Source of the DNA: a virus
Lineage: Duplodnaviria; Heunggongvirae; Uroviricota; Caudoviricetes
Direction: 5' to 3' (one strand)
DNA: 40,184 bases
IMG/VR virus record: IMGVR_UViG_2563366911_000003
Shown here: piece after piece, positions 6,672 to 9,976 of the stretch
Position numbering within the stretch: the stretch's first letter is position 1
Layout: each line of letters starts with the position of its first letter
Made by a program: the position numbers and the translations under genes
The notes under the pieces: generated by a model
The model's input: the letters and a program-made list of their open reading frames with translations, nothing else
Databases searched by the model: none
What the model was told of the DNA's origin: nothing

Positions 6672-7160
6672 ATGTTGGATGTATTTACTCCATTGTTGAA
6701 ACTTTTTGCTAACGAGCCACTCGAAAGACTTATGTATACGATTATCATTTTTGGTCTCACTCTCTGGCTGATACCGAAAGAGTTTACTGTCGCATTCAAT
6801 GCTTATACTGAAATACCTTGGCTCTTTCAGATTATCGTTTTTGCCTTTTCTTTCGTGGTCGCCATTTCCTTCTCAAGATTGCGAGCACATATTCAAAAGC
6901 ATTATTCATTACTACCAGAGCAACGAGTATTGCTTCGTTTATCTGAGAAAGAAATCGCTGTATTTAAAGATTTCCTTAAAACAGGAAATCTTATTATCAC
7001 TTCTCCTTGCCGTAACCCGGTTATGAAAAAATTAGAACGGAAGGGCATCATTCAACATCAGAGTGATAGCGCAAACTGTTCTTATTATCTCGTCACCGAA
7101 AAATACTCCCATTTTATGAAGTTATTCTGGAACAGCAGGAGTAGACGTTTTAATCGTTAG
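6672..7160 (+). CDS. sieB: Superinfection exclusion protein SieB-like (membrane protein)
   Basis: 162-aa hydrophobic product from the ATG at 6672 (MLDVFTPLLKLF...); the longer 6549 start in the ORF track looks like an upstream extension. Confidence 0.7.
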   Translation: MLDVFTPLLKLFANEPLERLMYTIIIFGLTLWLIPKEFTVAFNAYTEIPWLFQIIVFAFSFVVAISFSRLRAHIQKHYSLLPEQRVLLRLSEKEIAVFKDFLKTGNLIITSPCRNPVMKKLERKGIIQHQSDSANCSYYLVTEKYSHFMKLFWNSRSRRFNR

Positions 7161-7312
7161 CTTACTGTGTGCTTCTCCAACCATCGGCGCGCACCAGTTT
7201 CGGTTTTAAATGTTTTGCTTTTGGTATACGTCATGGCAGTGAACGTTCCATCCTGGTTGGGGAACACGCCGCACACCAGGGATTCGTTGTTGCCGAGGTC
7301 GATTTTTTGCAT
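7157..7312 (-). CDS. ydaF: Small protein YdaF-like
   Basis: Hand-translated 51-aa minus-strand ORF (MQKIDLGNNESLVCGVF...); not in the ORF track. Confidence 0.5.
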   Translation of the reverse strand: MQKIDLGNNESLVCGVFPNQDGTFTAMTYTKSKTFKTETGARRWLEKHTVS

Positions 7313-7322
7313 TTTGCGAATC

Positions 7323-7457
7323 TCACATCTTGTTGCTACGTATAGCGACTTCTGCCTGCCAGAGATCCCAGTCGTTGCTGCGTAAAGCCTGCACAGCCTG
7401 GTTGTAAGTGATACCGCAACAATCCATCAAATACTGAACTACTTCGTAATGCACCAT
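7323..7457 (-). CDS. ydaG: Small protein YdaG-like
   Basis: Hand-translated 44-aa minus-strand ORF (MVHYEVVQYLMDCCGITYNQ...); not in the ORF track. Confidence 0.5.
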   Translation of the reverse strand: MVHYEVVQYLMDCCGITYNQAVQALRSNDWDLWQAEVAIRSNKM

Positions 7458-7764
7458 CTTATCTCTCCCCTTAACGCCGGGTGGCGGAACTAACTGCTGC
7501 ACTGCAAAATTTGAATCCCGCCGTCATGTTCATACGCCTCGGGCTGGCTACTTAACCCCTTACCACTGCCTGGTAACTCGAAGTATTGCCCGGCGTTCTG
7601 TGGGGCGGGGTGGGTGGTATGCTGGAACTATAGGTAATGCCTAATTGATTGTCAATAGGCTATGCCTAATGTTTTGAGCGTAACCTAATAGGTGATGGCA
7701 ACAGGAGAAAGTGATGGGGGGTTAAATAACGGAATCCAGGAGTTTTCCGTCAGACCATATAAGT

Positions 7765-8241
7765 TTAAGTTCCAGTTTTTGTGATGTTCTGGCTTTTCCG
7801 TTCAGATTCTAGAGCTTTCAGATACTTACCCACTTTCATTTCCATCGCTGCTATGTAGGCGCGAACATCGTGGTCAACCCAATCTGGTTCTGTAGCATTT
7901 CCAGATAACAGGAAAGCTACAATCGCTCTTATTTCATCAGAGGCTGCTTGATAAAGGTTGTTTATATCTAAAAGTTCACTTTTTGTATCTGAATTGGTGG
8001 CGGTTGGTATGGGGTATTCGTTAAGCCCCCAATGCTCTGGACCAACAACATCAGAAAAGAAACGCCATAATTCTGGAAGTTTATCTTTACTTATGGAGCC
8101 TTTCTTAATCCAGTCATAAATTGATGGTGGTTGGACTTTGAAGTGGCGTGCGACCTCCGCCTTTGATTTGACGGATCCCGATGCGATTTTTTTGTTAATG
8201 GCCTGCTCTATCGCTCGGCCTAAGTCTTTACCACTAAGCAT
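7765..8241 (-). CDS. racR: Prophage repressor RacR-like (HTH)
   Basis: 158-aa ORF divergent from ydaS across an intergenic region full of inverted repeats; translation matches recalled RacR. Confidence 0.85.
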   Translation of the reverse strand: MLSGKDLGRAIEQAINKKIASGSVKSKAEVARHFKVQPPSIYDWIKKGSISKDKLPELWRFFSDVVGPEHWGLNEYPIPTATNSDTKSELLDINNLYQAASDEIRAIVAFLLSGNATEPDWVDHDVRAYIAAMEMKVGKYLKALESERKSQNITKTGT

Positions 8242-8364
8242 TGCTTAATATTCTCCTATGCTCATTGCATTAGGCAATCCCTACCCTTATTGCATTAGGC
8301 ATAGCCTATTGACATTTGCGTTAGGCGTCGCCTAATATTTCTGTGTGTTTTTGGAGTTCATTCG
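8242..8364. promoter_or_regulatory. Divergent racR/ydaS control region with repeated operator-like half-sites
   Basis: Three copies of a tgcattaggc/gcctaat-type motif (ttgcattaggcaatcc; ttgcattaggcatagcctattgaca; gcgttaggcgtcgcctaat) between the divergent starts. Confidence 0.5.
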
Positions 8365-8622
8365 ATGAAAAAAGAGAACTATTCATTCAAGCAAGCTTGT
8401 GCTGTTGTCGGTGGGCAATCAGCAATGGCTAGGCTTTTAGGTGTATCACCTCCAAGCGTAAATCAATGGATCAAAGGGGTACGTCAATTGCCTGCCGAGA
8501 GATGTCCAGCAATTGAACGTGCAACAAGAGGTGAGGTTCTGTGCGAAGAACTTCGTCCTGATATTGACTGGTCATATTTACGACGTTCGGCATGTTGTTC
8601 GCAGAATATGTCAGTGAAGTAA
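8365..8622 (+). CDS. ydaS: Cro-like HTH protein YdaS
   Basis: Small HTH-type ORF divergent from the repressor gene; translation matches recalled YdaS. Confidence 0.75.
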   Translation: MKKENYSFKQACAVVGGQSAMARLLGVSPPSVNQWIKGVRQLPAERCPAIERATRGEVLCEELRPDIDWSYLRRSACCSQNMSVK

Positions 8623-8683
8623 CTAAATGACAGTAACAAATCCTCATTTGATCATACCTGAAACATCAAGAGGCAAATGATTC

Positions 8684-9106
8684 ATGAAAATCAAGCATGA
8701 GCACATCGAATCAGTGTTGTTTGCCCTGGCAGCCGAAAAAGGGCAGGCATGGGTAGCCAATGCAATTACTGAAGAATATCTGCGCCAGGGGGGCGGCGAA
8801 TTGCCCCTGGTTCCAGGCAAGGACTGGAACAATCAGCAGAATATCTATCACCGTTGGTTGAAAGGTGAAACGAAAACGCAAAGAGAAAAAATTCAGAAGC
8901 TGATCCCAGCAATTCTGGCAATCCTTCCGCGCGAGCTGCGTCACCGACTCTGCATCTTCGATACCCTGGAACGCCGTGCATTACTGGCGGCGCAGGAAGC
9001 GTTAAGTACGGCAATTGATGCGCATGATGATGCAGTCCAAGCCGTTTACCGGAAAGCGCATTTCAGCGGCGGCGGGTCTTCCGACGATTCTGTCATTGTT
9101 CATTAA
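8684..9106 (+). CDS. ydaT: YdaT-like protein (cII-position regulator/toxin-like)
   Basis: 140-aa ORF directly downstream of ydaS, as in Rac. Confidence 0.7.
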   Translation: MKIKHEHIESVLFALAAEKGQAWVANAITEEYLRQGGGELPLVPGKDWNNQQNIYHRWLKGETKTQREKIQKLIPAILAILPRELRHRLCIFDTLERRALLAAQEALSTAIDAHDDAVQAVYRKAHFSGGGSSDDSVIVH

Positions 9107-9118
9107 GCAAAAGTTTCC

Positions 9119-9976
9119 ATGCTGTTTGTGCTTATTCTAAGCCACCGGACAGCATCATACGGGGCAATTATGGCCGCATTACCATACATGCAACTGTACA
9201 TAGCTGATTACCTGGCTGACACCATGCATTTGTCAGCAGAGGAGCATGGTGCGTATTTGTTGCTGATGTTCAATTACTGGCAAACAGGAAAGCCAATACC
9301 TAAAAACAGGCTGGCAAAAATTGCCCGCCTGACTAACGAGCGATGGGCTGATGTTGAACCATCCTTGCGGGAGTTTTTTTGCGATAACGGCGAGGAATGG
9401 GTGCATCTTCGGATTGAGGAAGATCTGGCATCAGTCAGGGAAAAATTAACCAAAAAATCAGCCGCAGGAAAAGCATCGGTTCAGGCCAGAAGAAGCAGAA
9501 AGGAAGCAGATGTTCAAACAAAACAAGAGAGAAATTTAACAGGTGTTCAAACAGATGTTGAAGTGGTGTTTGAACATGATGTCAACACAAAGGCAACTAA
9601 TAAAGATACAGATAAAGATCTAAAAACAGATCCCCCCCTAAATCCCCCCCGGGGGAATCGAGGTGTCAAAAAGTTTGACCCTCTGGATATTGCTTTGCCG
9701 AACTGGATTTCTGTCTCGCTTTGGCGTGAGTGGGTTGAATTTCGTCAGGCATTGCGTAAACCGATTCGAACGGAGCAGGGCGCTAACGGGGCGATACGGG
9801 AGCTGGAAAAATTCCGCCAGCAGGGTTTTTCACCTGAGCAGGTGATTCGACACAGCATCGCCAATGAATACCAGGGCTTGTTCGCGCCAAAAGGTGTTCG
9901 ACCTGAGACGTTACTCCGACAGGTTAACACCGTCTCGTTACCGGATAGTGCGATCCCGCCAGGCTTCAGGGGGTAA
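9119..9976 (+). CDS. ydaU: Phage replication protein YdaU-like
   Basis: 285-aa ORF directly upstream of the DnaC-like gene; contains C7/C7/G5 homopolymer tracts in its coding sequence. Confidence 0.65.
   Translation: MLFVLILSHRTASYGAIMAALPYMQLYIADYLADTMHLSAEEHGAYLLLMFNYWQTGKPIPKNRLAKIARLTNERWADVEPSLREFFCDNGEEWVHLRIEEDLASVREKLTKKSAAGKASVQARRSRKEADVQTKQERNLTGVQTDVEVVFEHDVNTKATNKDTDKDLKTDPPLNPPRGNRGVKKFDPLDIALPNWISVSLWREWVEFRQALRKPIRTEQGANGAIRELEKFRQQGFSPEQVIRHSIANEYQGLFAPKGVRPETLLRQVNTVSLPDSAIPPGFRG

Follow-up and report, generated by a model that had tools for sequence, protein, structure and literature searches.

Features of the racR Region

Among the cryptic prophages of Escherichia coli K-12, Rac has been studied most thoroughly, and its repressor gene, racR, is essential. 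In this report, we describe the operator sites that are found on both sides of racR in a viral DNA of 40,184 nucleotides (IMG/VR record IMGVR_UViG_2563366911_000003; Caudoviricetes). The whole of this stretch is referred to as the window, and all coordinates follow its numbering. The immunity region in the window is of the Rac prophage type, with 100% identity to E. coli 19KM1766N and 98.9% identity to K-12 MG1655. On the minus strand, the genes to the left of racR follow in the order ydaG-like, ydaF, kilR, ydaE, racC, recE, recT, ralR, rcbA, xisR, and intR, and sieB is found on the opposite strand. The RacR site is taken here to be the 15-bp palindrome TTAGGC-N3-GCCTAA. One cluster of such sites lies at the junction of racR with the divergent gene ydaS and constitutes the right operator (OR). 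A pair of similar sites, proposed here to be a left operator (OL) with its own leftward promoter (PL), begins approximately 100 bp past the stop codon of racR. The features of the region are collected in Table 1.

Table 1. Operators, promoters, and genes of the immunity region (window numbering; PR, rightward promoter).
Feature	Coordinates	Strand	Sequence and remarks
OL1, promoter-proximal	7630..7644		ATAGGTAATGCCTAA; 1 mismatch to the published consensus; fills the PL spacer and overlaps the -10 element
OL2, distal	7655..7669		ATAGGCTATGCCTAA; exact match to the published consensus; 25 bp from OL1
OL3, weak candidate	7674..7688		TTGAGCGTAACCTAA; 3 mismatches; 19 bp from OL2; tentative assignment
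PL, predicted	7627..7655	-	-35 TTGACA (7655..7650), 17-bp spacer, -10 TATAGT (7632..7627); 11/12 match to consensus
PL leader, ~150 nt	7466..7620	-	C-rich 5' end (CCACCCACCCCGCCCC); 76-99% identity among heteroimmune lambdoid prophages (L217, L219-L225)
Weak operator, published O3	8234..8248		CTAAGCATTGCTTAA; over the racR ATG (PMC9638921)
Extra right-hand operator	8270..8284		TTAGGCAATCCCTAC; from a 25-bp tandem duplication
OR2	8295..8309		TTAGGCATAGCCTAT; abuts the PydaST -35 element; inside the region footprinted with RacR (PMC9638921)
OR1	8321..8335		TTAGGCGTCGCCTAA; perfect palindrome; over the spacer and -10 element of PydaST
PydaST, PR equivalent	8309..8338	+	TTGACA-18-TAATAT; 10/12 match to consensus; verified experimentally (PMC9638921, PMC11879457)
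racR	7765..8241	-	Repressor gene, between both operator clusters; 100% identity with racR as annotated in 19KM1766N
ydaS	8365..8622	+	Cro-like; matches to YdaS_toxin, P22_Cro, and HTH_3
ydaT	8684..9106	+	
ydaG-like	7323..7502	-	First open reading frame of the leftward operon; annotated in the identical strain as a "phage protein" of 44 residues (7323-7457); weak UBA-like match
ydaF	7157..7312	-	Second leftward gene; DUF1391

The Proposed Left Operator Cluster

The consensus published for the RacR operator, W-TAGGC-n3-GCCTA-W, that is, WTAGGC-N3-GCCTAW (PMC9638921), was derived from the right-hand sites alone. With one mismatch or fewer, this consensus was matched four times in the 40 kb of the window, where 0.28 matches were expected, and this count was reached by 0 of 100 shuffles. 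Two of the matches, at 8295 and 8321, fall in the known region, and the only ones found elsewhere are those at 7630 and 7655 (OL1 and OL2). The predicted PL, judged by its match to the sigma-70 promoter consensus, is directed leftward and is co-directional with racR; its transcript is predicted to start near 7620. Read on the minus strand, the left cluster has the sequence ATTAGGCATAGCCTAT-TGACA-ATCAA-TTAGGCATTACCTAT-AGT, in which base 7655 is common to OL2 and to the -35 element of PL, where it forms the first T of the minus-strand hexamer. PL and PydaST were found to be built alike, each with a distal operator at the -35 element and a proximal operator over the spacer and the -10 element. 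In PydaST, the order is OR2-TTGACA-N6-OR1, with OR1 overlapping the TAATAT hexamer. The two promoter regions are also related by a 33-nt inverted repeat with 85% identity between 7650-7682 and 8282-8314 (repeat I1).

The frequencies of short words do not set these sites apart. The heptamer ATTAGGC was found 5 times in the whole window against 4.96 expected, and the hexamer TTAGGC was found 8 times against 17.1 expected. All five copies of the former and seven of the eight copies of the latter lie inside 7639-8336. With two mismatches or fewer, the palindrome was matched 6 times in the 40-kb window against 1.36 expected, and five of these matches fall within 710 bp, whereas no more than two did so in any of 1000 first-order Markov simulations. 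Three pairs of sites are spaced 24-27 bp apart, and no such pair was obtained in 1000 simulations. Totals of short words prove nothing by themselves; the signal is found in the full palindrome, its clustering, and its phasing. A preliminary description of this DNA, made from the letters of the sequence, had named a motif frequency at the level of chance as one of the results that would speak against its proposal of operators on both sides of racR. Such a frequency was found for ATTAGGC and TTAGGC and was not found for the full palindrome. The site with two mismatches at 9745, within ydaU, is isolated and was attributed to chance.

The preliminary description had also listed motifs similar to those of the right-hand region at 7630-7700. 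Two of these, at 7630 and 7655, are good sites. The third, given there as gtaacctaatagg and aligned here to the palindrome that begins at 7674, is weak. This candidate overlaps a further palindrome, ACCTAATAGGT, at 7682-7692. It is kept within the Escherichia Rac group, and in E. ruysiae (L008) and in L095 it has two mismatches. The third downstream motif is thus at best a weak, lineage-specific OL3. A YdaT half-box, TTGATT, was noted at 7646-7651 in the PL spacer. We treated it as a chance occurrence because it is not kept in O157 or in L002 and has no partner half-site.

Neither an OL nor a PL of Rac was found described in the literature searched, a search that did not include the older sbcA and kil papers, EcoCyc, or RegulonDB. 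The left operator is apparently undescribed for Rac, and the right half of the arrangement is already published. The published work on RacR operators covered the DNA upstream of racR and the first racR codons (PMC5700373, PMC9638921), and positions 7630-7688 are outside the fragments and alignments that were described there. The left sites share with the published operators O1-O3/O4 the ATTAGGC half-site, the W-TAGGC-n3-GCCTA-W palindrome, and the layout of operator and promoter.

The Right Operator Cluster

The right cluster (8234-8335) is made up of characterized RacR sites, which cover the promoters of the divergent genes racR and ydaS. Previously, the 123-bp spacer between racR and ydaS was reported to form three complexes with RacR in an electrophoretic mobility shift assay and to be enriched with RacR by chromatin immunoprecipitation and quantitative PCR (Krishnamurthi 2017, PMC5700373). 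DNase I footprinting subsequently defined the ATTAGGC half-site and the operators O1-O3 (later four), and the promoters PracR1-3 and PydaST were mapped (PMC9638921, PMC11879457). The site protected at the lowest concentration of RacR is O1 (Wisniewska 2022, PMC9638921). In size exclusion chromatography, RacR was reported to behave as an octamer, and YdaS was described as its competitor at the right-hand operators (PMC11014345). In the same paper of 2023, the RacR regulon, including the neighboring ydaFG operon, was called uncharacterized.

The three copies of the motif that the preliminary description had placed in 8242-8364 were confirmed as direct copies of 19 nt at 8265, 8290, and 8316, separated by steps of 25 and 26 bp (repeat family D1). 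Each copy contains a 15-bp palindrome, at 8270 (two mismatches), 8295 (one mismatch), and 8321 (no mismatch), respectively. The operator at 8270 arose from a 25-bp tandem duplication with 76% identity (8255-8279 and 8280-8304; family D3) and is specific to Escherichia Rac. Other genera carry only O1, O2, and the site at the start codon, and in these genera the start-codon operator is stronger (one or two mismatches). A further site with three mismatches is found within racR at 8209-8223.

Conservation among RacR Homologues

Among 58 distinct Escherichia sequences of the Rac type, the half-sites and the promoter hexamers are nearly invariant and the N3 spacers are variable. In copies that are approximately 87% identical (O157 and CFE299), the spacer of OL2 is TAC or TGC instead of TAT, and the half-sites are intact. 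The half-sites of OL1 are kept in K-12, in O157, and in five other genera. The combined block, ATTAGGC-N3-GCCTAT-TGACA-N5-WTAGGC-N3-RCCTAW-(TAT/AGT), is found downstream of RacR genes and co-directional with them, in flanking DNA that is otherwise unrelated, in E. coli K-12, O157, Klebsiella phage KpF5, Mixta, Morganella, an Achromobacter metagenome-assembled genome (MAG), and Pigmentiphaga. The same layout is present in Proteus, with TTGACT as the -35 element. The block thus ranges over prophages of gamma- and beta-proteobacteria. Alongside RacR homologues with identities of 57-75% (KpF5, Mixta, Morganella, Proteus, the Achromobacter MAG, and Pigmentiphaga), a pair of sites spaced by 25 bp is fused to a -35 element and to TAATAT or TACTAT. 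Fusions of TTGACA to the distal operator, and of TAATAT, TATAGT, or TACTAT to the proximal operator, recur across lineages.

The association was also found in the reverse direction. When the DNA block alone was used as the query, 79 viral contigs were retrieved, and in 76 of them a RacR homologue is encoded upstream of the block on the same strand. The remaining three contigs span only about 1.5 kb upstream of the block, and two of them carry the cargo gene of KpF5. The junction GCCTATTGACA-N5-WTAGG is present as a single copy in 91 of 96 loci. The gap between racR and the block is approximately 50-200 bp in 61 of the 76 loci and 0.9-1.95 kb in the other 15. Where cargo genes follow racR, the block stays with the leftward promoter and not at the stop codon of racR. 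In KpF5 and Pigmentiphaga, for example, the block is 1.2-1.4 kb from the stop codon of the repressor gene, and cargo genes lie in the interval. The distance from OL to OR ranges from approximately 615 bp to approximately 2.2 kb, and the helical phasing of these distances is not conserved among the lineages compared.

Several observations were made on individual loci. The cargo was located in KpF5 (L003, 428-1582), in L118 and L177, and in L014 (4869-6044), and one of the cargo products is a protein of 384 residues with a domain similar to the type I restriction domain HSDR_N. In KpF5, a hairpin resembling an intrinsic terminator (aatcccgc-ttat-gcgggattttttt) is positioned just before OL2. A 5.2-kb contig labeled as a "Candidatus Nanosynbacter" MAG (L007) encodes a RacR that is 99% identical to the E. 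coli protein and carries the same OL block; this contig is most likely mis-binned enterobacterial DNA. In the Achromobacter MAG (L013, 4001-5098) and in Pigmentiphaga (L014, 4001-4906), the N-terminal DNA-binding domain of RacR is fused to a Peptidase_S24 domain of the LexA/CI type. These fusions are about 75% identical to RacR over residues 1-77, and their operators and OL/OR layout are unchanged. The C-terminal domain of the enteric RacR is different and is not of the S24 family.

Exchange of the Immunity Cassette and the Leader of the Predicted PL

In the heteroimmune phage vB_EcoS-666R9, identity with the window extends to position 7615, and the sequence beyond that position is unrelated. 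The breakpoint at 7615/7616 falls approximately 5 nt inside the predicted PL transcript and marks the left edge of the cassette. This phage has a repressor of its own, with a different repeat (of the AGTAC/GTACT type) on both sides. OL, the repressor gene, and OR are therefore exchanged together as a single unit of specificity, with its left edge at the predicted start of PL. Many prophages have only 7400-7620 of the window in common with this one. In ten aligned relatives, promoter-operator sequences of at least six unrelated types meet one and the same conserved leader, in each case only a few bases from the predicted start site.

The leader, which is shared by prophages with different repressors, is the segment through which most of 3840 matching E. 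coli records match the window. No match to Rfam was obtained at E ≤ 1. The fold of the single sequence is unremarkable (z = -1.76), and covariation is unsupported, since RNAalifold with 10 diverged copies returned a covariation term of +0.28 and a compensatory change in 1 of 30 pairs. An arginine-rich open reading frame similar to that of N was not found after PL. We considered the leader as a nut element of the type used by lambda N or as a put element of the HK022 type, and neither assignment was supported; a stem-loop backed by covariation, as expected for boxB or for the two put stem-loops, was not found, and put was judged without the HK022 sequence itself.

Proposed Regulation of the Leftward Operon

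The best explanation for the two clusters is an immunity cassette of the lambda type, in which RacR is the repressor, the right cluster is OR, and the left cluster serves as OL/PL. We estimate the probability of this interpretation to be about 0.85. The sites themselves, their enrichment, their overlap with promoter elements, their conservation, and their co-inheritance with racR were observed in this analysis. The preliminary description had suggested that another cluster of operators lies past the 3' end of the repressor gene, in the manner of lambda OL/OR, and this suggestion agrees with the consensus match, the promoter overlap, the conservation, and the co-exchange. The alternative offered there, a separate binding array, is unsupported because the left and right sites share the same type of operator.

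By gene order, the predicted PL heads an early-left operon that contains the kil, recombination, and xis/int genes. OL1 and OL2 overlap the elements of PL, and bound repressor would therefore occlude RNA polymerase at this promoter. In the proposed mechanism, dimers of RacR on OL1 and OL2 would exclude the polymerase from PL and thereby keep the operon silent (ydaG-ydaF, kilR, ydaE, racC, recET, ralR, and xis-int). When the level of RacR drops, PL would fire. The Cro-like protein YdaS probably binds to the same left sites. A bridge between OL and OR, held by the reported RacR octamer, would form a loop of approximately 640-690 bp around racR.

Published expression results bear on this mechanism. 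When the transcription of racR was blocked by a foreign C protein, the transcripts of ydaF, ydaG, kilR, ydaE, and racC increased by 40-70-fold (PMC6765115). When racR was targeted by CRISPR interference, the leftward genes as far as intR were derepressed and transcription of racR was reduced by 11-20-fold (bioRxiv 10.64898/2026.09.06.749655). That the leftward genes were derepressed in spite of the reduced transcription of racR speaks for a promoter of their own, located downstream of racR. The classical zygotic induction of the Rac recombination functions also fits a separate leftward promoter (PMC5917428).

Weighing of the Alternatives

A number of points weigh against the assignment of OL and PL to Rac. 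One half-site of OL1 carries a C-to-T change in the Escherichia lineage. The candidate OL3 is weak and restricted to one lineage, being absent from the loci of the other genera compared. No OL pair was found within 4 kb of the gene for the RacR homologue of Klebsiella sp. R390 (L011). The occupancy of OL by RacR in Rac is proposed here from the sequence. In the published model, the entire RacR octamer is accommodated on the four right-hand repeats, and OL is not needed (PMC11014345). According to one proposal, kilR is kept silent by Rho-dependent termination in or downstream of racR (PMC4150792). The argument from expression is partly confounded because read-through from the racR promoter could supply some of the leftward transcripts. 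We regard Rho-dependent termination as a complementary safeguard and read-through as a partial alternative source of the leftward transcripts. At the Klebsiella sp. R390 locus (L011, 3900-4000), the right-hand promoter is also degenerate, with TTTTAT in place of TTGACA, and this cassette may be decaying.

It is nearly an even prospect that OL acts purely locally, with RacR occluding PL, no contact with OR, no loop, and the octamer situated wholly on the four right-hand repeats. The wide range of OL-OR distances without obvious conserved phasing would suit such an arrangement, as would the presence of only three right-hand sites in genera other than Escherichia. However, paired and spaced sites on both sides of the gene for an octameric repressor are the arrangement found for looping in lambda, and PaaR2 of CP-933P is also an octamer with OL and OR sites (PMC8630535). 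Looping between OL and OR is plausible only through the reported RacR octamer (PMC11014345), and it stays a tentative proposal that we place somewhat short of even odds. Two more elaborate readings are considered unlikely. In the first, octamers of RacR would bridge OL1-OL2 and OR1-OR2 in an unusually short loop of approximately 0.65 kb enclosing racR and its Rho-dependent terminator, and would mechanically couple the repression of the lethal ydaST and kilR operons to the autoregulation of racR. In the second, the leader, which recurs in thousands of E. coli prophages and with no fewer than seven types of heteroimmune cassette, would be an undescribed cis-acting element of early-left transcription (for example, a Rho-loading or antitermination site) that acts by its sequence and not by its fold.

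A further explanation, in which the left sites serve chiefly a protein other than RacR (for example, the Cro-like YdaS), is improbable. In its favor, PaaR2 and YdaS each repress PL933P of CP-933P by approximately 100-fold (PMC8630535), and competition of YdaS with RacR is reported at the operators on the right-hand side (PMC11014345). The left sites, however, match a consensus obtained from the DNase I footprints of RacR, and the motif follows the N-terminal domain of RacR even where this domain is joined to an S24 domain (L013 and L014). Moreover, the sharing of sites by a repressor and a Cro protein is the norm among lambdoid phages and is compatible with binding of RacR. A functionless origin of the left copies, either as the relic of a partial inverted duplication or as a chance cluster, could call upon the inverted repeat I1 and on the short-word counts of the whole window, which are at or below chance. 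This explanation is effectively refuted by the clustering and phasing that were unmatched in 1000 simulations, by the persistence of the block, amid otherwise unrelated DNA, in prophages of gamma- and beta-proteobacteria, where the half-sites are fixed and the spacers between them vary, and by its single copy in 91 of the 96 loci. Equally remote is the explanation of the palindromes as RNA hairpins or transcription terminators. The segments 7656-7668 and 8320-8336 were flagged as terminator-like on the plus strand by a consensus scan, but the stems have only 5-7 pairs, the T-runs are poor, and the plus strand is not the strand that is transcribed through racR. The N3 spacers vary freely and the letters of the half-sites are fixed without compensatory change, which is the signature of a protein operator and not of a hairpin.

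Comparison with Lambda and CP-933P

The cassette proposed here, with RacR as the repressor of both operators, can be compared with the OL/PL and OR/PR-PRM regions of lambda, which are controlled by CI and Cro. In both cases, the repressor gene is located between two operator clusters. The left cluster overlaps a strong promoter, predicted in Rac, from which the recombination, kil, and excision genes are read in the same direction as the repressor gene. The sites are spaced 24-26 bp from center to center, and the strongest site is on the -10 side of the lytic promoter. Cargo genes can separate the repressor gene from OL, as rexAB does in lambda. The unit is exchanged as an immunity cassette, and the repressor is reported to be octameric. 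There are also clear differences. The RacR operator is a 15-bp TTAGGC-N3-GCCTAA palindrome and that of lambda is a 17-bp site, and the C-terminal domain of the enteric RacR is not of the S24 type. The OL of Rac has two good sites and at most one weak site, and the OR of Escherichia Rac has four sites, one of which is over the start codon of racR. OL and OR are separated by approximately 0.65 kb in Rac and by 2.3 kb in lambda. Neither an N gene nor a nut site is recognizable after the PL of Rac.

A second parallel is provided by the sister prophage CP-933P, a cryptic lambdoid prophage similar to Rac in which the repressor is accompanied by YdaS (Cro-like) and YdaT (CII-like). In CP-933P, the promoter PL933P and its operators OL1-3 are located beyond the repressor operon, and a reporter assay demonstrated that both PaaR2 and YdaS repress this promoter (Jurenas et al. 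2021, PMC8630535). The -35 and -10 elements of PL933P are similar to those of PR, and three copies of the operator are present; the repressor is octameric. CP-933P differs in that its operator consists of repeats of the GTTTAGTAA type and in that a toxin-antitoxin pair is located between the repressor gene and OL. The PL/OL of CP-933P has been tested experimentally, and that of Rac is predicted here from its sequence.

Other Features of the Window

The window starts with intR, which adjoins ttcA, and according to the annotation of the identical strain 19KM1766N it contains a Rac-like prophage that is fuller than the Rac of K-12. The ydaS gene encodes 85 residues in the window and 98 residues in K-12, and it is annotated in 19KM1766N as a C-terminally incomplete pseudogene. 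The sequence ATGATTCATGAAAATCAA, at 8677-8694 across the start codon of ydaT, has the same letters as the published YdaT-box (PMC11879457). The window also contains genes for a NACHT-domain NTPase, tRNA-Thr, tRNA-Gly, lysis proteins, TrkG, the terminase, and head proteins (approximately 12800-14200 and 17000-17200; annotation of L096).

Significance

In current models, RacR represses ydaS and ydaT and acts in the racR/ydaS intergenic region alone. If the interpretation presented here is correct, a PL controlled by RacR would explain in one step the increased expression of kilR, recET, ralR, and xis-int that accompanies the loss of RacR. It would also raise the question of whether the excision of Rac that follows the loss of RacR is due to YdaS or simply to the derepression of PL. 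In addition, the PL/OL region would give the RacR octamer an alternative use. The general view of lambdoid regulation is unchanged by these results. The left operator is a predictable part of the textbook architecture. Across prophages of enteric bacteria and Burkholderiales, a single DNA-binding specificity and the OL/OR layout have been kept while the C-terminal domain of the repressor has been exchanged.

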